Program-made: the position numbers and the translations under genes
Assembly (NCBI RefSeq): GCF_007747445.1
Contig: NZ_CP036425.1
Coordinates: forward strand, 1,084,175-1,100,174
Direction: 5' to 3'
DNA from: Poriferisphaera corsica
GTDB lineage: Bacteria; Planctomycetota; Phycisphaerae; Phycisphaerales; Phycisphaeraceae
Length of the DNA stretch: 16,000 bases
The notes under the pieces: model-generated
The model's database searches: none
Seen by the model: the letters and a program-made list of their open reading frames with translations, nothing else
What the model was told of the DNA's origin: nothing
Shown: positions 1 to 16,000 of the stretch, piece after piece
Layout: each line of letters starts with the position of its first letter
Numbering within the stretch: the first letter of the stretch is position 1

Positions 1-26
1 TGTGCGGTGTTGTTGACGATTGACAT
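1..26 (-). CDS. 5' end (MSIVNNTA...) of an unidentified CDS that continues beyond the left edge
   Basis: There is a minus-strand ATG at 26..24 with GGAGG (plus-strand cctcc 33..37) 6 nt upstream. The codons ATC GTC AAC AAC ACC GCA follow the C/A-ending usage of the other minus-strand genes in this window. The fragment is too short to identify. Confidence 0.3.
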
Positions 27-161
27 GGGATGCCTCCGGAATCGTACTGTTTCAGTTTTGTATAAATTGTTGCTGGGACGTGAGATATGTCCCGGAGACA
101 GGCTAATATGAGTATCGTTTGTGACGGGGATTTACTTAAGTGGAGTTTGATATAGACCTAT

Positions 162-193
162 AAAAAAAACGCGATCCGTGGATCGCGTTTTTT
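162..193 (-). terminator. Rho-independent terminator downstream of the 220..699 gene (looks bidirectional)
   Basis: A8 (162-169), a 7-bp GC-rich stem cgcgatc/gatcgcg (170-176 / 181-187) with 4-nt loop cgtg, then T6 (188-193). Read on the minus strand this is hairpin plus T8, lying 27 nt after the TAA at 220-222. Confidence 0.7.
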
Positions 194-219
194 GGGAACA
201 TTCAATGATAAATCGTAAC

Positions 220-699: not shown

Positions 700-752
700 T
701 GCAGCATTTTAAGTGAGGAGCAGCCTGTATAAAAGGGAGTCGATAGGCTAAT

Positions 753-780
753 AAAAAACGCGACCGGGAGGTCGCGTTTT
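753..780 (-). terminator. Rho-independent terminator of the rpmF-plsX-fabH operon
   Basis: A6 (753-758), stem cgcgacc/ggtcgcg (759-765 / 770-776) with loop ggga, then T4 (777-780). On the minus strand this is hairpin plus T6, about 50 nt after the fabH stop (825-827). Confidence 0.7.
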
Positions 781-786
781 GGGAGA

Positions 787-808
787 TTTGTTTTGTTTTG
801 TTTTGTTG
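787..808. repeat. Pentanucleotide microsatellite (TTTTG)3 with partial flanking units, in the fabH 3' UTR
   Basis: tttg ttttg ttttg ttttg ttg. The perfect units lie at 791-805, between the fabH stop and its terminator. Confidence 0.6.
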
Positions 809-824
809 TGATGTGGTCGGGAGC

Positions 825-1841: not shown

Positions 1842-2878
1842 TAGGCTGATTCCTCTGCGACTACTTCGGAATTTGCGAACGCCTCCACGATGGCGTCATT
1901 CACATGATGCTCCGCATACGAGATCGCTTTGCGGATTGCATTTTTGATGGTTCTAGCCTGGCTTGAACCGTGGCAGATCATGCAGATGCTGTTCGCTCCG
2001 AGCAGTGGCGCGCCACCATACTCATGATAATCGTGTTTCTTCCAGACCCGTTTTGCGACAGGTTCGAACTGCATGGCAAGCCCGGGGTCTTCTTCGAGGA
2101 TTTCGTGGGCGATGATCTCGAAGAGTCCTTTTGAAAGGCCTTCGGAAAGTTTTAGCACGACATTGCCGGTAAAACCTTCACACACGACGACGTCCGCCAT
2201 CCCTTTAAAGAGAGAACGACCTTCGCAGTAACCAACATAGTTGATTGAAGAATCGCTCTTAATAATTTCGTTTGTTTCTTTAACAAGGGAGTTGCCCTTG
2301 TTTTCTTCGCCACCGATGGAGAGTAGTGCGACTCTGGGGTTGTCGACGCCGAGGACTTCGCGGGAATAGATCGCGGACATTTTGGCGTACTGGTAGAGGT
2401 GTGAGGGCCGTGGTTCGGGGTTTGCGCCGACATCACAGAGGACGACGGGGCCGTGGAACGTTGGCAGGATGATTGCGATTCCGGGGCGGTGAACGCCTGG
2501 GAGTCGGCGCAGTGACATTTGTGCGGCTGCGACACAAGCGCCGGTGTTGCCGGCACTGATGATCACGTCGACTTTTTTGTCGCCTGCTTTGCGTCCGGCC
2601 ATCTTACCCATGACAACGAGGGAGCTGTCAGGCTTATCACGGATCGCCTGTACGGGTGACTCGCCCATGCCGATGGACTGGGTGGTGCCGACAATTTCGA
2701 GGCGTTGCTTATCATCGTCACTCAGGGTGCGTTCGGCAATCGCTTCTTCAATCAGCTCCTGGTCACCGATAAGCACAAGCGTGTCATCGGAGGAGAGAAG
2801 TTCAATCGCGTCGAGGCACCCAGTGATGATGGCATCTGGGGCGTTATCGCCCCCCATCACGTCTACTGCAATGCGCAC
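1841..2878 (-). CDS. plsX: Phosphate:acyl-ACP acyltransferase PlsX
   Basis: 345 aa with the hallmark N-terminus (M)RIAVDVMGGDNAP plus SAGNTGA and ICHG motifs. It uses a GTG start at 2878, only 4 nt after the rpmF stop. The rpmF-plsX-fabH order is the classical one. Confidence 0.95.
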   Translation of the reverse strand: MRIAVDVMGGDNAPDAIITGCLDAIELLSSDDTLVLIGDQELIEEAIAERTLSDDDKQRLEIVGTTQSIGMGESPVQAIRDKPDSSLVVMGKMAGRKAGDKKVDVIISAGNTGACVAAAQMSLRRLPGVHRPGIAIILPTFHGPVVLCDVGANPEPRPSHLYQYAKMSAIYSREVLGVDNPRVALLSIGGEENKGNSLVKETNEIIKSDSSINYVGYCEGRSLFKGMADVVVCEGFTGNVVLKLSEGLSKGLFEIIAHEILEEDPGLAMQFEPVAKRVWKKHDYHEYGGAPLLGANSICMICHGSSQARTIKNAIRKAISYAEHHVNDAIVEAFANSEVVAEESA

Positions 2879-2882
2879 GGGA

Positions 2883-3068
2883 TTAGTCTTCCTTCGAGTT
2901 GAGTTGTAGTTTCAGGCCTGGGCGTACGTACCCGCAGTCACTGCATGCTGCGTGTGGCAATTTGATGCCGCCGCAGTTGGGGCAGCTGACGGAGACGCGC
3001 GCTTTAATTGCGTCGTGGCTACGACGGATGCGGCCTCTGGTACGACTCTGTCTCTGTTGTGGAACCAT
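2883..3068 (-). CDS. rpmF: 50S ribosomal protein L32 (zinc-ribbon, 4-Cys form)
   Basis: MVPQQRQSRTRGRIRRSHDAIK... followed by CPNCG...CSDCG (CxxC..CxxC). I place the start at the ATG 3068..3066; the track ORF begins 5 codons earlier at a TTG at 3083, which does not fit the usual L32 N-terminus. It sits immediately upstream of plsX. Confidence 0.9.
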   Translation of the reverse strand: MVPQQRQSRTRGRIRRSHDAIKARVSVSCPNCGGIKLPHAACSDCGYVRPGLKLQLNSKED

Positions 3069-3486
3069 GGTTCTACTTTCCAAATACTACTGTTCAAGTT
3101 GAAATAAATCTCACCATTGGTTGGGTCGGGATGTGTTCATGGCACAATCGGCCCAGAATGGTGTTCAGGAAACCGCAAAGGGTAGCTTTGCGGGGGTATT
3201 CCGTCAACCTGACCCCTAACGGGGCCCGGACAGAAAATAGGTTTTAAAAGGTGCGAAAATACGGTTGTGGGGCTGTGTCGCGGGGGGGGTGTAGCAGCAT
3301 GGGGGATAAATGAGGGTTGAGGGGCTGTAGGTGGGGGTCTGAAGAGTCTGTAGTTGTTTATGTGACTGTTTTTCGCGGATTTGAGGGGGATTGAGTATTT
3401 TTGAGGGATTCAGAAATCTTACACAATCTTAAGGCGTGAGTCATGTGGCGTCATGGTGAGATTGCGTGTTCTCTGGATATTGGGTG

Positions 3487-3517
3487 AAAAAAAATACCAC
3501 GGAGAAGGACTCCGTGG
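3487..3517 (-). terminator. Rho-independent terminator of the symporter operon
   Basis: A8 (3487-3494), 8-bp stem ccacggag/ctccgtgg (3497-3504 / 3510-3517), loop aagga. On the minus strand this is hairpin, then ta, then T8, lying 38 nt after the TAA at 3555-3557. Confidence 0.75.
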
Positions 3518-3554
3518 CAATTCCTATTTATCACAAGATTTTGAGGGCAATGGG

Positions 3555-5627
3555 TTAAGCGTTGATGAGATCGGCTGCGGTGCTGGCGGGCTCGTGTTCG
3601 AGATCGACGGCTGGTGGTTCGTATTCGGGTTCGCGGATGGATGCGATCATCTCTTGCACTTTCTCGTTGGGGCCTGTGGTGAACGGAACGAGTGAGAGTG
3701 TGAGTACGAAGTTGATGATCATGCCGACGACGCCGATGCCTTGGGGGCCGATGCCGAAGCACCAGTGTGGCATTTTGAAGTAGACGGCGGCGATGATGTA
3801 AAAGGCGGTAAAGGCGATGCCAGCAATCATGCCGGTGATGGCCGCGGTGGTGCCGACACGTTTTGAGAAGATGCCGAGGACGATGGCTGGGAAGAATGAG
3901 GCGGCGGCGAGGCCGAAGGCGAAGGCAACGACTTGTGAGACGAAGCCTGGGGGGTAGATGCCGAAGAGTCCGGCGATGACGACGGCGAAGCCAATGGTGA
4001 CGCGACCGACGGCGAGGCGTGAAGTTTCGGAGGCGTTGTTATTAAGGATGCGGAAGTAGAGGTCGTGTGCGACGGAAGATGAGATGACGAGTAGTAGACC
4101 TGAAGCGGTTGAGAGTGCGGCGGCGAGAGCGCCTGCGGCGATGAATGCGATGATCCAGTTGGAGAGTTCAGCCATTTCAGGTGTTGCGAGGACGATGATG
4201 TCACGGTCTGGGCCTGAGAGATTTTTGGCGGTGAGTATTTGCCGGGCATCAGCGCCTTGCTGGCCGTTTGAGTCGAGCCAGAGCTGATGGTTGGTGCGGA
4301 GTGTTCCGAGTTCTGCGGCGATGGCGCCGGAGCCTGTACGGAAGATTTCGTTGTCTTCGCGTCCGGTGTATTTGAGTTTGCCGTCGTTGTCGCCATCGAA
4401 GAATGCGATGAGTCCAGTGCGTTCCCAGTTAAAGAACCAGTGCGGAAGTTCGGAGAGGATGTCGCCTGTGGTTTTGTGGATGATGTAGCGTTTTTGTCCG
4501 GCGGCAGTGGTGAATGAGGTGAATTCAGGGGCGAATGAGCCATCGGTGCCGTGATCGACGGCGATGCGTGGGATGCTATCGGCATCGTTGATGAGTTTGA
4601 GCGTTTGGCCGGTGTCGGTTGTGATGCCTTGTGGCGGGAGTGGGACGTTGTAGGTTCGGTTGTTGAGTGTGGTGAGCATGTAGTATCGTGCGAATGCGGC
4701 TGTTGACGGCGCGGTGAGGTAGAGGCCGGCCATGAAGAAGAGTGCCCAGAAGGCTGACCATCGTGCGGCTTTGACGTTTTTAACGGTGTAGAAACGGACG
4801 ATGACGTGGGGTAGTCCTGCGGTGCCGACCATGAGAACGAGTGCTACGCAGAACATGTTGAGGAGTTTATTGAATCCGCCGCCGGATTCGCCGGAAGCGG
4901 CGGTGTAAGAGCCGAAGCCGAGGTCACTGCCGATGTCGTTGAGTTTATCGAGGAAGAATGCGGAGGATTGTGTGGTTGTGTCGGTGATGGTTGAGCCGAG
5001 TCCTAACTGTGGGATAGGGTTGCCAGTGAGCTTGATTGAGATGGCGATCGCGGGGATGAGGAATGCAGTGATGAGGATCCAGAATTGGGCGACTTGAGTC
5101 CATGTGATGCCTTTCATGCCGCCGAGTGTGGCGTAGATGAAGACGATGATCATGCCGATGATGACGCCGTAGGTGACGGGGACTTCGAGGAAGCGAGAAA
5201 AGACGATACCGACACCGCGCATTTGTCCAGCGACGTATGTGAAGGAGATAAAGATTGCACATATCACTGCGACGAGCCGGGCGAAGTCCGAGGAGTAGCG
5301 GTCGCCGATAAAATCGGGAACCGTAAAGTGTCCGAACTTTCGGAGGTATGGTGCGAGGAGTAGCGCGAGGAGTACGAACCCACCCGTCCATCCCATGAGG
5401 TATTGTCCACCGGCGTAGCCCATGGTTGCGATGAGTCCTGCCATGCCGATGAAAGATGCGGCTGACATCCAGTCGGCGGCGGTTGCCATACCGTTGGCGG
5501 AAGCAGGGATGCCTCGTCCGGCGACGTAGAAGCCTTTGGTGTCTTTGACACGAGCCCGCCATGCGATGAAGAGATAGAGCGTGAAGGTGATGCCGACGAA
5601 TATGTAAGTCCATGTCATGACGTTCAT
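3555..5627 (-). CDS. Sodium:solute symporter (SSF) large subunit, ActP / VC_2705-like, with a long hydrophilic insertion
   Basis: 690 aa and polytopic. SSF-like motifs are FYVAGRGIP..NGMATAADWMSAASFIGMAG, GLPHVIVRFYT and AAGALAAALSTASGLLLVISSSVAHDLY. Its start overlaps the stop of the DUF4212 gene (ATGA at 5624-5627), the pairing typical of the two-component symporter family. Substrate cannot be assigned from sequence. Confidence 0.9.
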   Translation of the reverse strand: MNVMTWTYIFVGITFTLYLFIAWRARVKDTKGFYVAGRGIPASANGMATAADWMSAASFIGMAGLIATMGYAGGQYLMGWTGGFVLLALLLAPYLRKFGHFTVPDFIGDRYSSDFARLVAVICAIFISFTYVAGQMRGVGIVFSRFLEVPVTYGVIIGMIIVFIYATLGGMKGITWTQVAQFWILITAFLIPAIAISIKLTGNPIPQLGLGSTITDTTTQSSAFFLDKLNDIGSDLGFGSYTAASGESGGGFNKLLNMFCVALVLMVGTAGLPHVIVRFYTVKNVKAARWSAFWALFFMAGLYLTAPSTAAFARYYMLTTLNNRTYNVPLPPQGITTDTGQTLKLINDADSIPRIAVDHGTDGSFAPEFTSFTTAAGQKRYIIHKTTGDILSELPHWFFNWERTGLIAFFDGDNDGKLKYTGREDNEIFRTGSGAIAAELGTLRTNHQLWLDSNGQQGADARQILTAKNLSGPDRDIIVLATPEMAELSNWIIAFIAAGALAAALSTASGLLLVISSSVAHDLYFRILNNNASETSRLAVGRVTIGFAVVIAGLFGIYPPGFVSQVVAFAFGLAAASFFPAIVLGIFSKRVGTTAAITGMIAGIAFTAFYIIAAVYFKMPHWCFGIGPQGIGVVGMIINFVLTLSLVPFTTGPNEKVQEMIASIREPEYEPPAVDLEHEPASTAADLINA

Positions 5628-5995
5628 ACGACACCTCCGTCATTGTTTTTGGATTTGGTATGAAGTTCGTCTAACTCGCGCTTATGGAGGTTGTCGATTT
5701 TATTCATTGTGAGCGCGTAGATGAGGATGATGATGACGAAGATGATGATGGCGCCTTGTTGGGCGAACCAGAAACCAAGTGGATAGCCTGTGCCGGGGAA
5801 GTTGAATTGGTTGAGCCAGTCGGCGAAAAGGATGCCGCAGCCGAGGCCTGCGGCGGCCCAGATGAGCAGGAGGATGCCCATGACGCGGATATTGCGTTCC
5901 CAGTATTTTTGAATCGATTTTACGATGATAGGATTCGAGTAATCTATCTTACGCTTAGGTTTTTGGTCAGGGGGTGCGGGTGGCTGATCGTGCAT
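5624..5995 (-). CDS. DUF4212-type small subunit of a solute:sodium symporter
   Basis: 123 aa with two TM helices. It matches the family pattern YWERNIRVMGILLLIWA...FPGTGYPLGFWFAQQGAIIIFVIIILIYALTMNKID. GGAG lies 7 nt upstream of the ATG, and the gene is translationally coupled to the large subunit. Confidence 0.85.
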   Translation of the reverse strand: MHDQPPAPPDQKPKRKIDYSNPIIVKSIQKYWERNIRVMGILLLIWAAAGLGCGILFADWLNQFNFPGTGYPLGFWFAQQGAIIIFVIIILIYALTMNKIDNLHKRELDELHTKSKNNDGGVV

Positions 5996-6028
5996 GTTTG
6001 GGCTCCTACAATGAAACAGGATAGCGAC

Positions 6029-6053
6029 ATCGCTTCATTATTTATGAAGCGAT
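6029..6053. promoter_or_regulatory. Perfect 10-bp inverted repeat (atcgcttcat N5 atgaagcgat) in the leader/promoter of the symporter operon
   Basis: Arms at 6029-6038 and 6044-6053 with a 5-nt AT loop, 34-58 nt upstream of the DUF4212 ATG (5995). No T-run follows on either strand, so it is a candidate operator or 5'-UTR hairpin rather than a terminator. Confidence 0.45.
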
Positions 6054-6222
6054 ACAGCGGATGATTAGATAAGAAATACTGAGTCTAAAAGATGATTCAG
6101 CTAGGGAACCAATCGGGATGAAGCAAGATCGTAAAGATAAATATGATAAAGGTGCAAATGGTTTTTTTAATATTGTGGGAAGAGTGGTATATGGGGTATG
6201 GCGAGTAAGTATTCAGGTGATT

Positions 6223-7137
6223 TTACCAGGTATAATGATCGATTCCGAAGACGAGAGCGCTGCCGAAGAAACCAACGCAGCAGATTAATGGAGCGATGAT
6301 GAAGAGTATGATACGTAGAGGAAGTCGAGAGCGAGATTCAGGTTTTACGGAGTGATATTCGAGAGAAATGAGTGCGAGGAAGGCGAGTATGGTGGTGGCG
6401 ATGCCGAGGAAGCGGTGGGTGTTGAGGATCCATTGTTTGTGGGGTGCGAGTATGAGGTAGGCGGCGTCGAAGAGACCGAGCGCGGTGGCGAGTAAGGCGG
6501 CGAAGGCGCCGAGCCAAAGGGTGAAGCGTGTGATGGATTTGAGTGAGTGTTGTTGGGTGGTGATGAGGAGGAATTCGGAAAGGGCGGCCACAAGAAGGAG
6601 TGAGATGGGGAAGTGTGAGGATGCGGGATGAAACTGGCCGAGGAACTGAATGATTTTGCGTGAAGCCGAGATGCGGGGTTGATCGATGGTGACGGTGCGT
6701 TCTGTGAGGGGGATGTCGTGGATGATGACGGTGGATTGATCGCGGGTGGCGGCGCCTGACTCGATCCACCATTTCACGGTTTCTTTTTGTTTCTCAGAGA
6801 GTGGGGGGATGTCGGAGTCAGGTGGCGGCATTTCGTCGGATTCGATGACTTCCCAGATGTAGGATTGATCGGGTTTTGTGGGGACGATGTAGTTGGGATC
6901 GGCGGCGAGCTGTTTGAGGTTGAGTATGAAGTCGAAGCCGCCTTCGGGGTCGTCGAGATCGGGGCCATGGCATTGTGCACAATGGTTGAGGAAGATGATG
7001 TGGACTTGTTCGGAGAGAATGAGTGAACGTTTGTGTTCGGTGTCATTGGTGTTGGAGGTTGGGGAGGTTTGCGCGTAAAGCAAAGCTGCGGTCATCAAAA
7101 GCATGAGCAGTGGTGGGAAGAGGTATTTCATGTGCAT
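6223..7137 (-). CDS. Secreted/membrane protein: N-terminal PSCyt1 (planctomycete cytochrome c, CxxCH) domain fused to a 4-TM DUF2231-like domain
   Basis: Signal peptide MKYLFPPLLMLLMTAALLYAQ. Heme-c motif CAQCH (nt 6967..6981, verified), followed by GPD..PEGGFDF, ..MPPP.. and ..WWIESGA as in PSCyt1. The C-terminal half has FHPASSHFPISLLL plus three further TM helices. The start may be the second ATG (7131), which has AGGA 7 nt upstream. Confidence 0.8.
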   Translation of the reverse strand: MHMKYLFPPLLMLLMTAALLYAQTSPTSNTNDTEHKRSLILSEQVHIIFLNHCAQCHGPDLDDPEGGFDFILNLKQLAADPNYIVPTKPDQSYIWEVIESDEMPPPDSDIPPLSEKQKETVKWWIESGAATRDQSTVIIHDIPLTERTVTIDQPRISASRKIIQFLGQFHPASSHFPISLLLVAALSEFLLITTQQHSLKSITRFTLWLGAFAALLATALGLFDAAYLILAPHKQWILNTHRFLGIATTILAFLALISLEYHSVKPESRSRLPLRIILFIIAPLICCVGFFGSALVFGIDHYTW

Positions 7138-7186
7138 GTCCTGATTTTTAGGGTTTTGTGAGATCAGGATTGGGAATCGCTACCTA

Positions 7187-7654
7187 CTAGTCTTTGAATT
7201 TTTTGTGGCTGGCTCGTTGGGTTTGCTTGACTTCGGAAAGGAATTGCGCGGCTTGCTTTTTGTTGCCGAGAAGGAGTGCGTTTTCGGCTTGAGCGAGGTT
7301 GATGATGACGTCGTTCATTTGGATGCGATACTCGGCGATGAGTTTGGGTTGCTCGGCGGGGGAGGCGTCTTCGATGATGTGGACGACGTGGGCTTGGTCT
7401 TTGGCGGTGAGTATGTGCTTGAGCATTTCAGCGGTGATATCGGCGGCTTGCTGTTCTTGGCCGTCTGCGCGAAGGGTTTTGTTCAGGTCACGGAAAAGGT
7501 CTTTGAGTTCTTCCATGGCGTGTTCGAGTGCTTCATCTTTATCGGCGGGTTCGGCGCGATCGTTGGCTGAGGAGGTCAGTGACCAAAAGCCAAGTGAGAG
7601 GGTGGCGAGTAGGATGAAAAGAGGAAGGCGGCGGCGCATTGTGGGCGTCGACAT
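7187..7654 (-). CDS. Periplasmic cytochrome b562-family four-helix-bundle protein
   Basis: 155 aa with a signal peptide (RRRLPLFILLATLSLGFWSLTSSA). The mature part aligns by eye with E. coli cytochrome b562 (recalled from memory). LEHAMEELKD matches LEDNMETLND, which carries the axial Met. QAAQFLSEVKQTQRASHKKFK matches QAAAEQLKTTRNAYHKKYR, which carries the axial His. GGAG lies 7 nt upstream of the ATG. Confidence 0.75.
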   Translation of the reverse strand: MSTPTMRRRLPLFILLATLSLGFWSLTSSANDRAEPADKDEALEHAMEELKDLFRDLNKTLRADGQEQQAADITAEMLKHILTAKDQAHVVHIIEDASPAEQPKLIAEYRIQMNDVIINLAQAENALLLGNKKQAAQFLSEVKQTQRASHKKFKD

Positions 7655-7882
7655 GGTGAATCTCCGTTATGAAAAGAATTTTCTCGTGTTTCCGCTGGTT
7701 ATGGTGATGGTTTATTAGGGACGCGTCAATAGTAATTTTGATGTGGTGCGATGGATATAAGGAGTAGAAGTGGGGATTGATCTTGCAGGTACAGGGGAAG
7801 TTGGTTGGCGGGGCACTCCATGAACTGCGGTCATCGGCTTGATGGGTGGAGCCCGTTATATCGTTTGGGAAGGGATGGTATG

Positions 7883-7911
7883 AAAAAAAGATGCAATGGT
7901 GTGATTGCATC
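7883..7911 (-). terminator. Rho-independent terminator of the Gfo/Idh/MocA gene
   Basis: A7 (7883-7889), 8-bp stem gatgcaat/attgcatc (7890-7897 / 7904-7911), 6-nt loop. On the minus strand this is hairpin plus T7, 35 nt after the TAA at 7946-7948. Confidence 0.75.
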
Positions 7912-7945
7912 CTTTGGGATTTGTTGGTTTTTTTAGGGGGGGAGG

Positions 7946-9022
7946 TTATTTGATTTTGACTTCTTTGCCGCCTTGGTCGGCGGATTTGTAGATGGCGTCG
8001 AGCATTTGCTGAACCATGAGGCCGTCTTCGATGGGTGCGATGGGCTTGGAGCCGTAGAGGATGTGGTCGATGAAGTTTCTAATCTTAAGATAGAAATTTT
8101 CAGCGAAGTCGGGTTGAGGGAGGTGGTGGGGTTTGGTGTCGACCATGTAGCCGTTTTCATCTTTAAAGATGCGTGAGTCATCCCAGGTTGCGCCGCCTTT
8201 GGTGCCCATGAGTTGGAAGTCGATTTTATTTTCTGGGATATGTGCGGCGAAGGATGATTCGACTTGGATGACGGCACCGTTGTCGAATCGGATGTGGCCG
8301 ACGGCGAGATCTTCGACGTCGTAGGTTTTGTAGTCCCAACCCTTCCAGATGGATTCGACTTGGTCGGAAGGTTTGTTGCCGAGGTAAGTCCATGTCATGC
8401 CTGATGCGGCGACGGGCTTGGGTGAACCCATGGCGTAGTGGCACATTTCGAGGGAGTGGACGCCGATGTCGATCATGGGACCGCCGCCTTGCAGGGCTTT
8501 TTGGCCGAAGACTCCCCAATTGGGGATGCCGCGGCGTCGTAGCGCGTGGACTTTGCCGTAGAGGACGTCGCCGATAACGCCTGAGTCGACTTGTTTTTTG
8601 ATGAATTGGGTGCGTGGGTCGAAACGCCATTGGTATGCGACGATGATTTTTTTGCGAGCTTTTTTAGCGGCATCGATCATGCGCTTGCCTTCACGAGCGT
8701 TCATCGCCATGGGTTTTTCGACCATGACGTGTGCGCCAGCGTTTGATGCGGCGATGGAGGCAGGAGCGTGGAGGCTGTTGGGTGTGCAGACGAAGACAAC
8801 GTCGGGTTTGGTTTCCCTGAGCATCTGTTTGTAATTGGTGTAGAGGATGTCGTGGGGCAGGTCATGCTTTTCGGCGCGGGCGAGCATGGTGTCCATGTTG
8901 ATGTCGGCGAGCGCGGCGACTTCGATTTCATCGATGCGTTTGAAGCAATCGTGATAGATGTCGGTGATGCCGCCTGAACCGATGAAGGCGGCTTTTAGTT
9001 TTTTAGTTTGTTTCGCACCCAT
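7946..9022 (-). CDS. Gfo/Idh/MocA family NAD(P)-dependent oxidoreductase
   Basis: 358 aa. N-terminal Rossmann motif KAAFIGSGGI, then VCTPNSLHA and the EKPMA motif typical of the family, followed by a C-terminal alpha/beta domain. GGAG lies 5 nt upstream of the ATG. No signal peptide. Confidence 0.9.
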   Translation of the reverse strand: MGAKQTKKLKAAFIGSGGITDIYHDCFKRIDEIEVAALADINMDTMLARAEKHDLPHDILYTNYKQMLRETKPDVVFVCTPNSLHAPASIAASNAGAHVMVEKPMAMNAREGKRMIDAAKKARKKIIVAYQWRFDPRTQFIKKQVDSGVIGDVLYGKVHALRRRGIPNWGVFGQKALQGGGPMIDIGVHSLEMCHYAMGSPKPVAASGMTWTYLGNKPSDQVESIWKGWDYKTYDVEDLAVGHIRFDNGAVIQVESSFAAHIPENKIDFQLMGTKGGATWDDSRIFKDENGYMVDTKPHHLPQPDFAENFYLKIRNFIDHILYGSKPIAPIEDGLMVQQMLDAIYKSADQGGKEVKIK

Positions 9023-9281
9023 GGTTACTCCATTGCAGCGTTTACGAGGTGAGGATGATCGGGTGTGATCGTTGTTTGGTCTTTGAACGTTGATCGCGCA
9101 TTATCGCGGATGGGATGTGGGACGCAATGCGAAATTGAAGAATGTCATAAAAAGAATGTGTGGAGGTGTGGATCGGGAGAAAAATGTATGAATGGGAGAG
9201 AATAGGGTGCAAGGACATGTATGGGGGCAGTATGATGTGATCGGATGATTTGTGAACGATCGAGGGCAGGCATTGAACGAT

Positions 9282-10334
9282 ATGAGTGAAACACAAAGAC
9301 AGGATGTGGCTGATGGTCAGGGCGCTGGCGGGGGTGTTGGGGGTGAGCAGGAGCCGGTGCATCCGTTGGCGGCGCTGCGGGCAGATTTGGCAGAGTTTGG
9401 GACGATTGAATGGCAGAAGAAAGATGAGCGGACGCTGTTAGAGCGTTATATGCCGTTCATTTTGTCGATGGGTATACATGTGGGTTTGGTTGTGGGTGCG
9501 ATCTTTGCGGTATGGACAACGATTGTGGTGGTGGCGGATCATGAGACGGTGGTGCCGAATATTGAGTTGGGACAGAGGCCGGGGGCGCCTTTGAAGCAGT
9601 CGAAGGCGAAGTCGGTTGAGTCTCAATCTTTGACGAGTAAGCGAACGATTACGGAGGTGGAAACGTCGCAGTCGACGTTGTCGCCGCAGCCGATTACGAA
9701 TTTACCTTTGGTGGGTATGGCGGGTGGGATGTCGAAGATGAATCCGTTTGCGGCGGATGTGGGTGGTGGTGCTGAATTTCGCGCGTCGTTTTTTGGGTCA
9801 GCGGGTAATGCGCGAACGGTTGTGTTTGTGGTTGATGCATCGGGATCGTTGATTGACACGTTGCCTACGGTGTTGAGGGAATTGCAAAAATCGATTCGCA
9901 AGTTATCTGATCGTCAGAATTTCACGGTGATTTTTTTTCAGGGCAAGCGGGCGTTTGAGGTGCCGCCTCGTGGTTTGAAGCAGGGGACGGCGGCGTTGAA
10001 GCAGCAAGTGATTGAATGGATAGATCCGGCGGCTCATCAAGTTGAACCGGGCGAGCAGACGAATCCGTTGCGGGCATTGGGGATGGCGCTTGGGTATAAG
10101 CCGGACTTGGTGTTTTTGCTGTCGGATAATATTACGGGGCAGGGGGTTTATGAGGTGGATCAGAAGCGATTGATCAATGAGATTGCGCGATCGAATCATC
10201 GTGGTACACGGATCAATACGATTCAGTTTTTGTATGCGGATCCATTAGAGGGCGAGGGGAGGCCGGGGACGATGCGGTTGATTGCGGAACAAACGGGTGG
10301 GCTATTTAAATTTGTGGAAGAAGGAGATCTTTAG
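9282..10334 (+). CDS. Single-pass membrane protein: cytoplasmic N-terminus, TonB/TolA-like TM anchor (SxxxH), Ser/Thr/Gln-rich linker, C-terminal von Willebrand factor A domain with a complete MIDAS motif
   Basis: vWA signature VVFVVDASGSL (DxSxS at nt 9834..9848, verified), with downstream Thr (EQTNPLRAL) and Asp (FLLSDN). TM helix YMPFILSMGIHVGLVVGAIFAVWTTIVVV. The start is ambiguous: ATG at 9282 (chosen) or in-frame GTG at 9252 (track). Neither has a clear SD. Confidence 0.85.
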   Translation: MSETQRQDVADGQGAGGGVGGEQEPVHPLAALRADLAEFGTIEWQKKDERTLLERYMPFILSMGIHVGLVVGAIFAVWTTIVVVADHETVVPNIELGQRPGAPLKQSKAKSVESQSLTSKRTITEVETSQSTLSPQPITNLPLVGMAGGMSKMNPFAADVGGGAEFRASFFGSAGNARTVVFVVDASGSLIDTLPTVLRELQKSIRKLSDRQNFTVIFFQGKRAFEVPPRGLKQGTAALKQQVIEWIDPAAHQVEPGEQTNPLRALGMALGYKPDLVFLLSDNITGQGVYEVDQKRLINEIARSNHRGTRINTIQFLYADPLEGEGRPGTMRLIAEQTGGLFKFVEEGDL

Positions 10335-10468
10335 TCCGTCTTATAGGGTAGAGGGGCGTAGGGGGCGGTGCGCGGGTGTGAGGGAGTCTGTATTGAAGGA
10401 TTGCTGCAAGATCTTGGGTTAGGGGAACTTGCGACAATCTATTGGTTGATGAAAAGGGTTTGAGAACC

Positions 10469-10497
10469 TTGGAATCTGGGCGCAAAAGAATTACAAT
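10469..10497 (+). promoter_or_regulatory. Candidate sigma70-like promoter for the exbB-exbD-exbD-repeat-protein operon
   Basis: TTGGAA (10469-10474), exactly 17 nt of spacer, then TACAAT (10492-10497), about 185 nt upstream of the exbB ATG. This is pattern match only; promoter consensus in this lineage is not established. Confidence 0.3.
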
Positions 10498-10681
10498 GAA
10501 AACCACGATCAAGGGAATTCAGGGTTAACTTGATGGGTATGAATCGGGGGAATGTTTGTTTGGGCTGGTCGATCGTTGATCAATGAAGATGATGCTGATG
10601 TTATGAGCTGCTGAGTTGTGAGATGAGGCGGCGAAGCGGGGGGATGTAGCAGAGGCAGTAGATAGAACAGAGGATGTACGT

Positions 10682-11848
10682 ATGCGGCGAATGGTCGTCA
10701 TCGTGACGGGAATATTGATGCTGATGTTGCCTATGAATGTGGCGTTTGCGCAGTCAGATGGCTCGGAGGTTTCTTGGTTTCGTCAGTTTATGTGGGCGGG
10801 AGATTTTTTGGGTTTGGTGATCATATGGACATTGCTAGCGATGTCTGCATTCTCGATTGGATTTTCTGTGAATCTGATGCTGGGTTATCGTCGTAAGAAG
10901 ATGATGCCAGAAGAGACGCTGAAGAAGATTGAGGTGCAGTTGGGTAATCGGCAATACCGCGAAGCGATTACTGAGGCGGATAATAATCCATCGTATTTGT
11001 GTAAGATCATTGGGGCGGCATTGCATGAAGCACCGAATGGTTTTGTGTCGATGGAGCGAGCGATTGAAGAGACGTCGGATAACGAGACGGTTAGGATACT
11101 GAGGCCGTTGGAGTACTTGAATGTGTTGGGGAATATTGCACCGATGGTCGGTTTGTTCGGGACGGTGTACGGGATGATTCGGGCGTTTCAGGAGTTGGTT
11201 GCTGCGGGAGGCAATGCAGAGCCGGGCAAGTTGGCGGCGGGTATTTCGACGGCATTGATAACGACGTTTTGGGGTTTGGTTGTTGCGGTTCCGGCGTTGA
11301 CGGCCTATGCACTGATTAGGAACAAGGTTGATGCGTATGCATCGGAGGCAGTGTTGGTCGCAGAGAGTCTAATAGCGCCGTTTAAGCCGACACAGGTGGC
11401 GATTCAGCAGGCGCGTATGCAACAAGCACAATTGCAGGCACAGATTCAGGCTCAGGCTCAGGCTCAGGTCTTAGCTAGAAATCAGGGGTCGGGGATGGGA
11501 CCATCACCGGTTCAGCAGGCGGGTGCGGTGCAACAGGAACAGGGACAAGGCCAGCAAGTTCAGTCGCAACAGCCCGTACCGCAGAATGTGCAGCAAGCTC
11601 CGGTGGTGGAGGATGTGCAACCGGTGAACGATGGGTCGCAGGGTGAGGTGATGGCAGAGGTGGAAGCGGAGCCGGCGCAAGGGCAGCCGAATGTGGATAC
11701 TGATCGTGCTCAGGCTGGATCGGGTGCGGGGTATTCGTTAGCGGATGCGGTGAATGATCAACCTTCGACTGAGCATCGAAAAATGAGTTCGCCGTTGTTG
11801 TCGGCGGCGGCGTCGCAGCAGCAGAAGATACAGGAACGTAAGCAGTAA
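10682..11848 (+). CDS. exbB: MotA/TolQ/ExbB-family proton channel protein with N-terminal signal-like segment and a ~150-aa low-complexity Gln/Ala-rich C-terminal extension
   Basis: Family motifs LGNIAPMVGLFGTVYGMIRAF and LAAGISTALITTFWGLVVAVPALTAYA. N-terminus MRRMVVIVTGILMLMLPMNVAFA-QS. The core ends near residue 235 and the rest is a QQARMQQAQLQAQIQAQAQAQ... tail. Followed by two exbD genes. Confidence 0.9.
   Translation: MRRMVVIVTGILMLMLPMNVAFAQSDGSEVSWFRQFMWAGDFLGLVIIWTLLAMSAFSIGFSVNLMLGYRRKKMMPEETLKKIEVQLGNRQYREAITEADNNPSYLCKIIGAALHEAPNGFVSMERAIEETSDNETVRILRPLEYLNVLGNIAPMVGLFGTVYGMIRAFQELVAAGGNAEPGKLAAGISTALITTFWGLVVAVPALTAYALIRNKVDAYASEAVLVAESLIAPFKPTQVAIQQARMQQAQLQAQIQAQAQAQVLARNQGSGMGPSPVQQAGAVQQEQGQGQQVQSQQPVPQNVQQAPVVEDVQPVNDGSQGEVMAEVEAEPAQGQPNVDTDRAQAGSGAGYSLADAVNDQPSTEHRKMSSPLLSAAASQQQKIQERKQ
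11447..11470 (+). repeat. In-frame hexanucleotide tandem repeat (CAGGCT)3 plus CAGGTC, encoding QAQAQAQV in the ExbB tail
   Basis: Perfect units at 11447-11452, 11453-11458 and 11459-11464. The repeat is codon-aligned: (11447-10682) is divisible by 3. Confidence 0.7.
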
Positions 11849-11877
11849 TTGGCTTGATTGTTTTTACTGTGTGCTAG

Positions 11878-12387
11878 ATGGGGTTTGAAGAGTTCTGTAT
11901 GAGATCATTTGTTCACAAAACTGGCCCGGCAACGCCGAGCATGAATTTGACGCCGCTGATTGACATCGTCTTTTTGCTGGTGGTTTTTTTTATGTTGGCG
12001 TCGACGATGGTGACGAAGCAATCAGTAAAAATGATTGTTCCAGATTTAGAGCAGCCTGAGACGCGAGAGATGCCGGAGAAGGATCGGATTGTTGTCAATA
12101 TCGCCCCGAAGACAGGTGATCGAGACAAGCGTGCTCCGTTGGATTATGACGGCAAGCCAGAATTTGTGCAGATTGGGGCTTACGGGACATTTAAGATTGA
12201 TGATCATGAGAAGATTGTTGAGGCGATTAAGTTGATGGCGGATCGTAATCCATCGGCGGAGGTTTATTTGCGTGCGGATGCTGCGATATTTTATGAGCAG
12301 ATCGAACCGATCATGGATGATATTACGAAGAGTGGCATTGCGAGGGTGAACCTCGTGGCGTACTTGCCAGAAGAAGCGGCTAACTGA
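11878..12387 (+). CDS. exbD: ExbD/TolR-family biopolymer transport protein (paralogue 1)
   Basis: Signature MNLTPLIDIVFLLVVFFML TM segment followed by a periplasmic domain (VYLRADAAIFYEQIEPIMDDITKSGIARVNLV). It begins 30 nt after the exbB stop. Alternative ATG at 11899. Confidence 0.85.
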   Translation: MGFEEFCMRSFVHKTGPATPSMNLTPLIDIVFLLVVFFMLASTMVTKQSVKMIVPDLEQPETREMPEKDRIVVNIAPKTGDRDKRAPLDYDGKPEFVQIGAYGTFKIDDHEKIVEAIKLMADRNPSAEVYLRADAAIFYEQIEPIMDDITKSGIARVNLVAYLPEEAAN

Positions 12388-12445
12388 TTGATAGAGGCGT
12401 GCTGACTTGAGTACGGATGAAGGACAACAAAATTCAGAGCAGTTT

Positions 12446-12958
12446 ATGGCGCAAGGCTGTGCTGTGGATGACGAATATGTGCCTGTGCGGAAACGGCGGT
12501 TGCTGCCTCCTGCGAAGATGCAGTTGCAGATTACCTCTTTGATTGATGTGATTTTTCAGTTGCTGATTTACTTTATCGTGACAGCATCTTTTGTGATGGG
12601 TGAGGGAGCGTTGCCGGCGAATTTGCCGCATGGTGGGGATCAGGCAACATCGGAAGCGGCACACCCGGAGCAGCCTTTGAATATTGTGTTGACGCCGGTG
12701 GGGAATTCATCTGTGCGTATTGAAGTGGAAGGTTTTCGTAAGCCAACAGAATCGTTTGTGCAGTTGCAGAGTTACTTGACGATGTTGCAGTACAACCCGA
12801 AGAAAAAACGATCGGGTTTTTACAAGCCCAGTAATCCTGTCATCATCAAGCCAGTGGGACAGGTCAGGTGGCAGCATGTGTTGAATGCATTTAATTCAGC
12901 TGTTTCGATTGGTTATGAGAATGTATCGTTTGCGAGAGTCGAGAGATTTGTTGAGTAG
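12446..12958 (+). CDS. exbD: ExbD/TolR-family biopolymer transport protein (paralogue 2, divergent)
   Basis: MQLQITSLIDVIFQLLIYFIVTASF TM segment plus a C-terminal domain (VIIKPVGQVRWQHVLNAFNSAVSIGYENVSF). Start is either the ATG at 12446 (chosen) or the TTG at 12407 (track), which has GAGG 9 nt upstream. Confidence 0.8.
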   Translation: MAQGCAVDDEYVPVRKRRLLPPAKMQLQITSLIDVIFQLLIYFIVTASFVMGEGALPANLPHGGDQATSEAAHPEQPLNIVLTPVGNSSVRIEVEGFRKPTESFVQLQSYLTMLQYNPKKKRSGFYKPSNPVIIKPVGQVRWQHVLNAFNSAVSIGYENVSFARVERFVE

Positions 12959-13003
12959 TTTGGGGTGGATGTTAATGGTTAGTAAATATGGGATTTTCGA
13001 TCT

Positions 13004-15856
13004 ATGAAGCGAAAAAATGGTCAGTTGGTGTCAAAGTTTTGGCGGTGCGTGCTGTGTGTTTTGATCGGTATGTTGTTAGGTGTGAAGGGTTGGTCGGCGG
13101 AGTTTGATGAGGGATTGGTCGAGCCGATGGCAATGAATGGGGAGGTGTTGGAAAGCTATACGCACGGGTTGGGAGATTATCATCTTGCGTACTTATTTTC
13201 ATCAGAGGCGGATCAATCAGAGGTTGTAAAAGAACGAAAGGCAGTTGAAGCTAGGATTCGGTTTGATGATTACATTCGACGCGCACGGCAGGCAGCTGAG
13301 ACTAATCAGGCGTTAGCGAATCGGTTGCAGGATTTGGGACTTGAAGCGTTGGATGAGGTACAGCGATCTTATCGTGAGATGGTTGAGGCGTTTGGGAATT
13401 CGCCACGGCGGCCGATATGGCTGACGAATATGGCGGAGTTGAAGTTACAGCAGATTTTGCAGATCAAGTATGGCTTTGCATCGGAGTCGTGCCGATATGG
13501 TGTGCCAACGCGTGTGCAGGAAATTGCATATGCAGAGGTGGTGCGTGAGGCGTTTTTTTTATTAGCAGAGGCAGATGCGAGTTTATATAAGCTGCAGACG
13601 CGATTGCCGCGATCGCCGGGTTTTGCAGCGTTGAAGACGCGAGGGTTGCCGGGGATGTTGTTTGATGAGTATGCGGCAAAACGTGTGCCGTTCTATCTTG
13701 GGATTGCGTCGATTTATGTAGCGACATTGCCGGCTGATGATATCTATTTTACAGGTGAATATGACAAGACGAATAGTTTGCTGATACGTAAGGAAACGAT
13801 TGAGGCAGAGCGGAAACGGTTGCTGGGAATTGGATTGGGGCGTTTGGATGGTTTTGTAACAGATCAGGGGGATGTGGCGGGTGTTCGATTTTCGGCGATG
13901 TTGCATGCATCTTATGCGCTATTTATGCGTGAAGAATATCAATCATCGATTCAGTTGTTGCAGCCACTGCTTAGATCGCAGCGACGTGATTTGACGACTT
14001 TGGGGGCGCAAATGTTATACGCACATGCGCTGGCAAAGAGTGATGTGCGGACGGCATTGGGTGAATTGAGGCGGTTGCAGGGATCACATCCGATTGTGAT
14101 TCAGTCGCCCATCTTTAAGTTGATGGTTGTTGATGCAATGTTTCGCGTGCAGGTTGATAATCTTGAACAGTTGCGTCGCGGACAGGATGGTGAATCTGCG
14201 CTTGGGCAAGCATTCAATGTGTATTATGAATTGATTGAAAGCCCGTCGTTGAGTGAGATGGAGCGGCAACAGATTAGTTACATGGTTGCGCAACGTTTTG
14301 AACGATTGGTGGCTTATGTTGATGATGTAAATCAGATGCCTGCACGCGTGCGGATGTTAATGACCGATTATGGTTTACAGCAGATGCAGGAAGCGATTGC
14401 GCGTGGTGAGCAAAATGTCGAGGGGAGTGAGCTGAACCGGTATTACCGATTGATACTGGATTTGGCGAAATCTTTGGATGAGGTTGATGTGGAGCCTGAG
14501 GTGAGGGCAAGAGTGGGATATAATGCGGCAATAGCGATGTATTTGCCAGATAAGCAATCGATGGAAAATTTGCAGGAGGTGGCAAATATTCTGGCGGAGC
14601 TAGCAAAGAAATTTCCGCAGCAATCAGTGTCTGTGAAGGCGATCACTTTTGCGACGGAAACGTTGCAACATCTTCATCAGAAATATCCGGATGTTGGTCG
14701 TATTGGTGATGATTATGCGGATGCGGCAGAGACGTTATTTAATGCATTTTCTGTCTCGAAAGCTGCAGACAATCAGCGTGTTTATTATGCGTTTTATCTG
14801 TTGCAGGGTAAAGGGCAATATGCTGCTGCGGCGGGGCATTACAAGCTTGTGCCGTTTGATCATCCTCAGTATTACGATGCCCAGCGTGAACTGATGTTTT
14901 GCTATGATGCACAGATTTCTCTGAAGCAGCAGGCAAATCAAAACTTTGATATTTTACTTGAGGCGATGAATGCGGATGCGAGGCGGATATTACGTGAGGT
15001 ATCGAAGGAAGATAAAAATATTGCGGAACGATCTGGGAAAGCGCAGATTGCTGAAGCGGTGACGGTGATGTTGCAAGCGGCAGGAATGGAGATGCGGGGA
15101 GCTTATGCGGATGCAGTCGCGTTGCTGGACGAGTCGGATGTAGATTTTGAGGCTTATTCAAACTTGTTACCCCGTGTACTGCAGGTGAGGATTAGCGCTT
15201 TGATTGGATTGCAGCAGTTGTCAGAGGCGGCGGCTTTATCGAAGACGTTTATGCAAGCGAGGCCGGAGCTGGCAGCGGCAACGATTGATCAGTTGCTGAA
15301 GCAGATCAATCGGCGATTTGATGTCGTGTTGAATCCATTGAATGAGTTGTTGCCACATGAGCGATTAAAGAAAGAAGCGCAGGCAGTTTTGACGTTGGCT
15401 GAAACGTTTCAGGTTGCGAATGAGGATGGTTTGATACAGCCGGGGTTGGATGATGAGTACTTGGCGAATATGGACATTATTAAATCGCGGGCGTATCGCG
15501 TTCTGGGGAGACCACAGGAGGCTGTGGATTTGCTTGGGCCTCAGACTGTGAAGTTTGGTGATGTGCTTGAATTGATTATGGCATATGGGGATGCTAATTA
15601 TGATTTAGGCACAAGTGAATCATTGGAAAGAGCACGTGTGCAGTATCGTATGGTGATGGGTTCTTATACTGAGAAACCATATCCCGAGGTGTATTACCAT
15701 GCATGGTTGAATTACTTGAAGGCGTGTATTGAGGGAGATGTGCAAGTTGAGGACGTGCCGTTGTATGTGGGGCAGCTGCGTATGCGTGATAGTGAGTTAG
15801 GTGGCGAGGTGTTTAAGAAAGCATTCGACGATTTGATTGAGCGGGTTAATCAATAG
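13004..15856 (+). CDS. Large (950 aa) secreted or membrane-anchored all-helical, TPR-like repeat protein of unknown function
   Basis: N-terminal signal/anchor KFWRCVLCVLIGMLLGVKGWSA-EF. The remainder is helical-repeat-like, with recurrent A/Y/L-spaced segments such as YAAAAGHYKLV, YADAVALLDES and EAVDLLGPQ...AYGDANYDLG. It begins 46 nt after exbD2 and shares the G/T-ending codon usage of the operon. No catalytic motif was recognised. Confidence 0.8.
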   Translation: MKRKNGQLVSKFWRCVLCVLIGMLLGVKGWSAEFDEGLVEPMAMNGEVLESYTHGLGDYHLAYLFSSEADQSEVVKERKAVEARIRFDDYIRRARQAAETNQALANRLQDLGLEALDEVQRSYREMVEAFGNSPRRPIWLTNMAELKLQQILQIKYGFASESCRYGVPTRVQEIAYAEVVREAFFLLAEADASLYKLQTRLPRSPGFAALKTRGLPGMLFDEYAAKRVPFYLGIASIYVATLPADDIYFTGEYDKTNSLLIRKETIEAERKRLLGIGLGRLDGFVTDQGDVAGVRFSAMLHASYALFMREEYQSSIQLLQPLLRSQRRDLTTLGAQMLYAHALAKSDVRTALGELRRLQGSHPIVIQSPIFKLMVVDAMFRVQVDNLEQLRRGQDGESALGQAFNVYYELIESPSLSEMERQQISYMVAQRFERLVAYVDDVNQMPARVRMLMTDYGLQQMQEAIARGEQNVEGSELNRYYRLILDLAKSLDEVDVEPEVRARVGYNAAIAMYLPDKQSMENLQEVANILAELAKKFPQQSVSVKAITFATETLQHLHQKYPDVGRIGDDYADAAETLFNAFSVSKAADNQRVYYAFYLLQGKGQYAAAAGHYKLVPFDHPQYYDAQRELMFCYDAQISLKQQANQNFDILLEAMNADARRILREVSKEDKNIAERSGKAQIAEAVTVMLQAAGMEMRGAYADAVALLDESDVDFEAYSNLLPRVLQVRISALIGLQQLSEAAALSKTFMQARPELAAATIDQLLKQINRRFDVVLNPLNELLPHERLKKEAQAVLTLAETFQVANEDGLIQPGLDDEYLANMDIIKSRAYRVLGRPQEAVDLLGPQTVKFGDVLELIMAYGDANYDLGTSESLERARVQYRMVMGSYTEKPYPEVYYHAWLNYLKACIEGDVQVEDVPLYVGQLRMRDSELGGEVFKKAFDDLIERVNQ

Positions 15857-15879
15857 GGCGATGTGTTTGTGGTGGTAAT

Positions 15880-16000
15880 TTAGAGAGTGATGGCCACTTT
15901 AACGTGGCCTGTACCGGAAATGGGGATCATGCCGAGATCAGCAGCTTCATCGTTGCCGGTAATGGTGATGCTAGGTTCGAGGGGAGTTGCGCGACGTATT
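15880..16000 (-). CDS. 3' end of an unidentified CDS entering from the right edge (...NDEAADLGMIPISGTGHVKVAITL*)
   Basis: Minus-strand frame is open for all 39 codons from the window edge to the TAA at 15882..15880 (checked triplet by triplet). Codons (CTC x3, ATC x3, GGC, ACC) fit the minus-strand C-ending pattern. It converges on the repeat-protein gene with a 23-nt gap. Confidence 0.35.
   Translation of the reverse strand, partial: IRRATPLEPSITITGNDEAADLGMIPISGTGHVKVAITL

Follow-up and report, generated by a model that had tools for sequence, protein, structure and literature searches.

The planctomycete Poriferisphaera corsica KS4 (Planctomycetota, Phycisphaerae) is the source of the 16,000-nucleotide stretch of DNA analysed here (the window), in which five consecutive plus-strand open reading frames (ORFs) combine an ExbB/ExbD-type proton-motive motor with a membrane-anchored von Willebrand factor A (vWA) protein and a secreted protein of 950 amino acids (aa). 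We confirmed these ORFs at 9252-10334, 10682-11848, 11878-12387, 12407-12958 and 13004-15856, where an initial annotation of the sequence had placed them, and the gaps between them (in gene order 347, 29, 19 and 45 nt, the third being 58 nt if the second ExbD begins at an internal ATG) agree with the spacing that it had given. The first ORF is 100% identical to KS4_09340 and the last to KS4_09380; for the former, NCBI places the start at ATG 9282 (350 aa), versus GTG 9252 in that annotation. The features of the cluster, including the transmembrane (TM) helix, the metal ion-dependent adhesion site (MIDAS) and the AlphaFold2 (AF2) models discussed below, are:

9282-10334, plus strand: vWA force-transducer gene KS4_09340, 350 aa, product predicted to cross the membrane once, with its N-terminus inside and a vWA head in the periplasm
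9426-9533, plus strand: TM helix of the vWA transducer (residues 49-84), with the His66 codon CAT at 9477-9479
9534-9785, plus strand: predicted disordered periplasmic linker of the vWA protein (residues 85-168), equivalent of domain II, from the AF2 confidence score
9543-9593, plus strand: conserved block of the vWA protein after the TM helix (residues 88-104), from an alignment of 95 ORFs
9816-10331, plus strand: predicted vWA domain (residues 179-350), from AF2 and Foldseek, with D185-A-S187-G-S189 at 9834-9848
10335-10681, no strand: intergenic gap of 347 nt, position of a small tetratricopeptide repeat (TPR) gene in most Phycisphaerae
10682-11848, plus strand: ExbB/TolQ-type pentameric proton-channel subunit, 388 aa (PF01618, E 6e-28)
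11878-12387, plus strand: ExbD/TolR paralogue a, 169 aa, with TM Asp29 (PF02472, E 1e-20)
12407-12958, plus strand: ExbD/TolR paralogue b, 183 aa from TTG (alternative ATG 12446), with TM Asp47 (PF02472, E 1.5e-14)
13004-15856, plus strand: predicted periplasmic all-alpha TPR-like solenoid of 950 aa, KS4_09380, with a Sec signal peptide and no lipobox (AF2 model)

Conservation of the cluster and its motor

A word-indexed search from the vWA protein returned 441 relatives, and a scan with the same protein across one genome per GTDB species gave 196 matching stretches, of which the best 79 loci, all of Phycisphaerae type, were analysed by calling their ORFs and labelling these with hidden Markov models (HMMs) built from the window's families. 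More than 60 species-level Phycisphaerae genomes share a gene order of one to three vWA genes, a small TPR gene, exbB, exbD-a, exbD-b and a 950-aa homologue (900 to 1050 aa), with protein identities of 35-70%, and the last of these genes always lies directly downstream of exbD-b as a constant sixth member of the cluster. The reverse search from the 950-aa protein agrees, with two of its most distant homologues (E ~1e-23 to 1e-25) lying in the same arrangement. The synteny of vWA and 950-aa orthologues with exbBD elsewhere, as implied when the genes were first proposed to form a module, thus holds across more than 60 loci, whichever of the two proteins the search starts from, and these comparisons support the view that the five genes form a conserved functional unit.

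Pfam and NCBIfam detect no TonB_C, TolA, TolB, Pal or TonB-dependent-receptor domain in any ORF of the window, in line with the initial annotation. Neither is a canonical tonB or receptor gene the conserved partner just outside, given that the TonB_C, Plug and TonB_dep_Rec families do not recur among 112 immediate neighbour genes. An outer-membrane barrel, a SusC/D-like gene or a carbohydrate-active enzyme (CAZyme) gene is nowhere a conserved neighbour of the cluster, and MoxR and DUF58 genes, which are typical of Bat/MoxR-vWA systems, are absent from the window and its flanks.

Pfam and NCBIfam agree on the motor genes, for which TolQ and TolR models score best. ExbB aligns to the cryo-EM chains of TolQ (8odt) and ExbB (5sv0 and 6tyi), with best scores against TolQ models and structures, and begins with a signal-like segment that leads into a conserved TM2/TM3 core and, at the C-terminus, a low-complexity tail rich in Gln and Ala (approximately residues 235-388). 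The core holds the channel threonines T161 and T195, both of which are found in 67/67 relatives. The long tail had been listed among the features of the module, but ExbB measures 319-519 aa in the Poriferisphaera clade versus ca. 240-300 aa elsewhere, and the tail appears to be a low-complexity feature of this clade only and not of the system.

The assignment of two different ExbD paralogues has held up as well. Asp29 of ExbD-a aligns with Asp25 of E. coli ExbD (in an alignment to 6tyi_Y), and the TM aspartate is kept in 66/66 ExbD-a and 65/65 ExbD-b proteins. The motor of the window has retained every one of its catalytic residues. The two form separate orthogroups with ca. 130 bits within versus ca. 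18 bits between groups, and the ExbD-a of the window scores 133 bits against its own orthogroup and 18 bits against the other. The same pairing can be recognised on a metagenomic, Kiritimatiellota-like contig (L086), where the first ExbD scores 72 bits against 'a' versus 42 against 'b' and the second 65 bits against 'b' versus 37 against 'a', suggesting that a heterodimeric ExbD rotor predates the split of the two phyla. Two paralogues that are ancient and distinct would imply an asymmetric rotor. Some loci encode a third ExbD homologue (L002, 9204-9647 on the minus strand; L036, L069, L083 and L085), as a divergent gene immediately before the vWA gene or as an additional copy inside the cluster.

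The window departs from most other Phycisphaerae in the gap between the vWA gene and exbB, which in most loci is filled by the small TPR gene, encoding a secreted TPR-like protein of ca. 350-400 aa. No remnant or relocated copy was found in the six-frame translation of the window with an HMM built from 54 small-TPR proteins. The gene is absent from all four loci of the Poriferisphaera clade (the window, L001, L007 and L067), where ExbB is lengthened instead, and ca. seven further loci have no detectable copy. A promoter proposed inside this gap (10469-10497) did not withstand comparison with shuffled sequences, as the site is a 9/12 consensus match of which the region has 8, versus 8.3 +/- 2.9 in shuffles. 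Promoter and terminator scans likewise gave counts not above those of shuffles and are therefore uninformative on operon structure.

The vWA arm and the 950-aa solenoid

The AF2 model of the vWA protein, built on a 54-sequence alignment, comprises a confident helix at residues 49-84, an unstructured stretch at residues 85-168 and a confident alpha/beta domain at residues 179-350 with a predicted local distance difference test (pLDDT) score of ca. 90. In the sequence, basic residues precede the helix and acidic residues follow it, suggesting an N-in topology. The helix carries the motif Ser62-x3-His66-x6-Ala73-x3-Val77, the spacing of which equals that of the S-H-L-S motif of TonB and TolA. His66 is invariant and Ser62 near-invariant in the 54-sequence alignment; for counts across genomes we used 107 vWA ORFs from the genome loci, 95 of which (from 79 genomes) are aligned across the helix and the block that follows it, and here the histidine is found in 95/95 and the serine in 88/95. 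These features support the view that the vWA protein is a TonB-like partner of the ExbB/ExbD motor, in line with the TonB-like topology noted in the initial annotation.

Directly after the helix, residues 88-104 follow the family consensus (I/V)(I/V)P-x-A-x-L-S-x-T-P-G-A-P-L, with P92 conserved in 88/95, L96 in 74/95, P100 in 85/95 and L104 in 75/95 ORFs. This location is that of the motor or stator box in TolA, TonB and previously described vWA transducers (PMC12204202), and the block is a candidate 'motor box' that may dock on the periplasmic domains of the ExbDs. The linker as a whole (residues 85-168) is modelled without secondary structure at pLDDT 39-59 and is variable and rich in insertions and deletions in the alignment.

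The C-terminal domain appears to be a vWA fold with an intact MIDAS, as had been proposed. With the modelled residues 179-350, Foldseek retrieves the solved vWA domains of ITIH1, CaV alpha2delta and CMG2 (E 5e-11 to 1e-6, TM-score up to 0.74) as well as integrin I domains. The metal site is made up of D185, S187 and S189 (D-A-S-G-S), T260 and D282, and among the 107 ORFs we found D185 in 104, S187 in 103, S189 in 103, a serine or threonine at 260 in 79 and D282 in 106.

In many genomes the motor is preceded by vWA-transducer paralogues in tandem, two or three in number and some of ca. 500 aa (L022, L024, L028, L036, L038, L041, L043, L044, L048, L054, L055, L057, L062, L066, L069, L083-L085, L087 and L088), and orphan paralogues lie far from any exbB in L034, L035, L040, L047 and L052, with L047 belonging to the same metagenome-assembled genome as L021. 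The TM histidine is retained in the paralogues wherever the helix aligns. We looked among the neighbours of the orphans for a target of the vWA head and found only housekeeping genes encoding alanyl-tRNA synthetase (AlaRS), phosphofructokinase (PFK) and PhoH.

The 950-aa protein has no Pfam or NCBIfam match. Its model is an all-alpha solenoid of 45 helices with a mean pLDDT of 89, and the N-termini of its family carry a Sec-type signal peptide ending in AxA|Q without a lipobox. A word-indexed homologue search, even with a 56-sequence profile, returned just one 66% relative besides the protein itself; the exhaustive HMMER search gave 237 cluster representatives at E<=1e-3, nearly all of them full-length (900-1050 aa). 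Across this family, G166, Q172, D377, R431, G933 and G934 are invariant, as is a loop near the C-terminus with the consensus D-P-x-L-G-G. The family profile matched only short generic consensus-TPR stretches in the PDB, and Foldseek retrieved for the model only long TPR scaffolds (IFT-A, Ctr9, Ski3 and TTC7, TM-score 0.15-0.2). These results bear out the earlier view that the protein lies outside well-characterised families, and the most fitting description is that of a periplasmic TPR-like solenoid specific to its family, with the fold as predicted by its model. A scaffold of the Campylobacter jejuni flagellar motor (PDB 9hmf chain K), which likewise is a long periplasmic TPR solenoid combined with a motor of the MotA/ExbB family, appears at Foldseek rank 15 (E 1.6e-5). 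The TM-score, however, is only 0.15-0.18 and the eukaryotic scaffolds named above score better, and we regard this modelled resemblance as generic to TPR superhelices. It is its gene linkage that suggests a role of the 950-aa protein as partner or scaffold of the motor.

Relation to known systems, mechanism and role

Our literature search found the system described nowhere besides an in-silico study that defined 'vWA force transducers', the genes of which adjoin tolQ, two tolR genes and a TPR gene, in bacteria of the Planctomycetes-Verrucomicrobia-Chlamydiae (PVC) group (PMC12204202, Mol Biol Evol 2025); a comparative-genomics paper on Phycisphaerae leaves Ton, Tol and Exb unmentioned. The traits of the class are a TM helix with the SHLS motif, a motor box, a domain II of ca. 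100 residues and a C-terminal vWA domain, and members are distributed over Proteobacteria, Planctomycetes, Verrucomicrobia, Bacteroidetes and Rhodothermaeota (PMC12204202). AF3 models in the same study place the conserved histidine at the TonB/TolA site on the motor, and the TPR gene is called frequent but not defining. The force-transducer class itself is thus no longer new, and the word 'undescribed' in the initial annotation has been overtaken.

By hhalign, the window family matches the published Tichowtungia transducer with a probability of 97% (E 1e-10) over 115 vWA-core columns, and the transducer-family HMM matches the L086 transducer, a 62% relative of the Tichowtungia protein, from the TM helix to the middle of the vWA domain (E 1.2e-8). 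The TM spacing S-x3-H-x6-A-x3-V is identical in Tichowtungia transducer 2 (S31, H35, A42 and V46), and the window protein, like the transducers of PVC bacteria, has a conserved block at the position of the box after the helix, a disordered linker (ca. 85-100 residues in the two groups) and a vWA fold at the C-terminus. In either case the transducer gene adjoins one tolQ-like and two heterologous tolR-like genes, with a/b identities that match between phyla, and the tandem transducers of many Phycisphaerae loci recall the Tichowtungia locus with its two. Given the homology of the window protein to the type example and its structural traits, among which the motor box is a candidate, we assign the locus, on comparative grounds, as a probable Phycisphaerae variant of the vWA force transducers of PMC12204202. 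The second vWA family of that study, TPH-vWA, was ruled out, as the TM helix here has a histidine and no aspartate and two exbD genes adjoin.

The variant differs from the type example in several respects. Its transducer gene lies upstream and not downstream of the motor, and the order vWA-TPR-exbB-exbD-exbD-950aa of Phycisphaerae contrasts with TPR-exbB-exbD-exbD-vWA on L086, a contig that ends just after the vWA gene. The TPR-like ORF upstream of exbB on L086 (16-687, plus strand) is cut off by the contig end, and its likeness to the Phycisphaerae small TPR is limited to the C-terminal repeat of the latter (hhalign E 0.016); since an hmmsearch in a set of 5 sequences likewise showed only weak similarity between the Kiritimatiellota and small TPR proteins (E 2.7e-4), the two are equivalent by position only. 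In the window there is no TPR gene upstream of the tolQ-like gene and a 950-aa TPR-like protein is present instead; loss of the small TPR gene together with a Gln/Ala-rich ExbB tail is peculiar to the Poriferisphaera clade. The solenoid of ca. 950 aa is a constant extra member in Phycisphaerae and is unmentioned in PMC12204202. Finally, the MIDAS is complete in the Phycisphaerae head, while Tichowtungia (474 aa) has DANKL instead of DxSxS and an insertion of more than 100 residues.

Set beside the Ton system, the locus has the same 5:2 motor core with conserved channel threonines and rotor aspartate and a transducer of TonB topology with the critical TM histidine, but it has two different ExbDs where Ton has a homodimer and lacks a TonB C-terminal domain (PF03544) and a TonB-dependent transporter in the window and conserved flanks. 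The head is a putative MIDAS/vWA domain instead, which would imply metal-mediated binding and not the beta-strand augmentation of a TonB box. With Tol-Pal it shares an ExbB that is closest to TolQ, a periplasmic TPR protein beside the motor, in analogy to CpoB, and what looks like a lineage-wide, single-copy, housekeeping distribution. Unlike in Tol-Pal, the window and flanks have no TolA domain III, TolB beta-propeller or Pal, and its TPR partner exceeds CpoB tenfold in size.

Taken together, we consider it probable (roughly 75%) that the locus encodes a Ton/Tol-type proton-motive motor coupled to a vWA force transducer with a metal-dependent head and accompanied by a periplasmic TPR-like scaffold. 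From the observed domain identities, motif conservation and synteny we infer how docking, pulling and partner engagement could proceed. The pentameric ExbB channel would surround a heterodimer of the two ExbDs, each with its proton-carrying TM aspartate, and the TM helix of the vWA protein would dock on the outside of the pentamer via His66 together with Ser62, as TonB does with His20 and TolA with His22. The block just after the helix would engage the periplasmic domains of the ExbDs, so that proton flow could pull on the disordered linker of ca. 85 residues and load the vWA head, which would grip its target via a metal ion at the MIDAS. The 950-aa solenoid may be this target or, more likely, an adaptor or scaffold that positions it.

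Several points weigh against this interpretation. Pfam gives only sub-threshold vWA matches for 9252-10334 (VWA_3 E 0.0017, with a score below gathering), though these matches are stronger in homologues, and the family profile has no PDB match at E<=10; with sequence matches this low, the vWA identity of the window protein depends on its structure model. Residues 88-104, the candidate motor box, are coil at pLDDT 50-59 in the monomer model. Metal-dependent binding is not class-wide, given that the published type example is without the MIDAS motif. A deletion phenotype is reported for no member of the class, for which gliding was offered as a guess (PMC12204202). This motor may be shared with a canonical TonB encoded at another place in the P. 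corsica genome, and the envelope role discussed next is read from distribution and context only.

Housekeeping coupling of the inner and outer membranes, in envelope integrity or constriction and not in nutrient import, seems the most likely role, because the cluster is single, has a constant context and no cargo-type neighbours, is found throughout Phycisphaerae among the recovered genomes and occurs where Pal is reportedly absent; Planctomycetes are listed as lacking pal in the supplement of PMC12204202, citing Witwinowski et al. A bolder version, which we hold to be possible though unlikely, sees the six-gene cluster as a functional replacement of Tol-Pal in a phylum without Pal and FtsZ, with a force-bearing metal-ion bond that tethers the outer membrane and pulls it in at division. 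Hyper-vesiculation is the classic tol-pal phenotype. P. corsica reportedly sheds conspicuous outer-membrane vesicles and apparently buds, while its characterised relatives divide by binary fission (P. corsica description paper), and if the cluster did replace Tol-Pal, the Poriferisphaera clade, with its small TPR lost and its ExbB extended, may show the effect of an altered system. The coincidence of small-TPR loss with vesiculation and budding is a correlation only and proves nothing.

A TonB-like role in uptake, with the vWA arm energising the import of large substrates such as polysaccharides in a lineage nourished by complex carbohydrates, is more doubtful still. The Ton-like motor and TM motif would fit, and the two or three tandem paralogues and additional orphans of some genomes resemble genomes with multiple TonBs, but the lack of any barrel, SusC/D-like or CAZyme gene as conserved neighbour, the housekeeping neighbours of the orphans (AlaRS, PFK, PhoH) and the presence of one cluster per recovered locus in a constant context speak against it.

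The initial annotation had also pointed to the Agl-Glt gliding machinery of Myxococcus, which combines a TolQ/TolR-type motor, TPR-rich periplasmic proteins and a vWA protein in one system, and a motor that drives a vWA adhesin and TPR scaffold in gliding or force-dependent attachment would find some encouragement in this parallel inventory, in the gliding suggested as a possibility for the class (PMC12204202) and in the reported motility of P. corsica. However, CglB, the vWA protein of Agl-Glt, is a lipoprotein and adhesin of the outer surface, whereas the vWA protein here would be an arm anchored in the inner membrane by a TonB-type helix, and P. corsica cells are spheres of 0.6 um (description paper). 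Glt outer-membrane barrels, GltG/J-type proteins and genes of the cytoplasmic platform were not found in the window or conserved flanks, though no direct comparison with Glt sequences was made, and the window proteins gave no match, in sequence or fold, that points specifically to GltD/E. The resemblance remains an analogy, and we judge surface motility or adhesion of this kind improbable.

Yet less credible is an ordinary Ton/Tol motor that serves a true TonB or TolA encoded elsewhere, with the vWA and 950-aa genes as unrelated neighbours or as parts of a Bat-like vWA/TPR complex without force coupling. ExbB/ExbD clusters without an adjoining tonB are common, the Bacteroides Bat operon combines vWA and TPR membrane proteins with no motor, and the 347-nt gap permits a separate transcript. 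Against this stand the adjacency conserved at 35-70% identity in both search directions, the motor-binding TM histidine of every aligned relative, the missing MoxR and DUF58 genes and the same pairing in Kiritimatiellota with a different gene order, and we consider the 'unrelated neighbours' explanation effectively excluded. The same holds with even greater force for a Zorya-like anti-phage system with a MotAB-type 5:2 motor and long-tailed A subunit, which was rejected because the ExbB tail of ca. 150 residues is of low complexity and absent outside the Poriferisphaera clade, the lone marginal ZorA match in PADLOC (E 0.0066) is confined to the core common to MotA and ExbB, PADLOC gives nothing for the remaining proteins, ZorC/D-like genes are lacking and the distribution is lineage-wide and syntenic and not patchy.

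For a long time, TonB and TolA were the only known arms of Gram-negative bacteria to carry the proton-motive energy of the inner membrane to the outer membrane. If the coupled vWA transducer proposed here is real, a third arm with an integrin-like metal-dependent adhesion domain would make the ExbB/ExbD motor a general-purpose puller and could explain how Planctomycetota maintain outer-membrane integrity and divide without Pal or FtsZ. To the description of 2025, the locus adds a cultured and fully sequenced host (P. corsica KS4), a MIDAS-intact head that is suited to clean point mutants, evidence for ancient and distinct ExbD paralogues and a previously unremarked 950-aa periplasmic protein that, as always linked, is presumably a partner.

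Other features of the window

Apart from the cluster, the window encodes rpmF-plsX-fabH, a DUF4212 gene with a sodium:solute symporter, a PSCyt1/DUF2231 protein, a cytochrome-b562-like protein and a GFO/IDH/MocA oxidoreductase. The latter gene (7946-9022, minus strand) lies divergently upstream of the vWA gene both here and in distant loci (L002, L003, L004, L087 and others). On the other side, 17 loci have an aldo/keto reductase gene right after the 950-aa gene, and NUDIX, rhomboid, TGT, YajC and SecDF genes often come next (e.g., L003, L087 and L088). Immediate neighbours are variable (n=112, including these 17 aldo/keto reductases, 7 GFO/IDH/MocA and 6 NUDIX genes), and the recurring genes on both sides look like a conserved chromosomal context outside the system.

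Two adjoining minus-strand genes at 6223-7654 encode a Planctomycete cytochrome-c (PSCyt1) and DUF2231 membrane protein and a secreted protein that we call cytochrome-b562-like at a score under the Pfam threshold (27.3 versus 30 bits). At the left end, a segment of low GC content (1-1000, 42%) carries a 159-aa ORF (220-699, minus strand) beside fabH-plsX-rpmF that has no Pfam or PADLOC match, and this segment may be foreign DNA. No Rfam family was found in the window.

The strand asymmetry of the window, which is unmentioned in the description paper of P. corsica, is extreme, with a GC skew of +0.30 over positions 1-16000 that is strongest at 3000-16000. At third codon positions, plus-strand genes show values of +0.55 to +0.86 and minus-strand genes, read along their coding strand, -0.43 to -0.75, and because the skew reverses sign with the coding strand, the plus strand must carry far more G than C at synonymous sites regardless of gene orientation. 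A close metagenomic relative (L001) reaches 0.34, other Poriferisphaera loci ca. 0.10 and most Phycisphaerae loci ca. 0-0.05.

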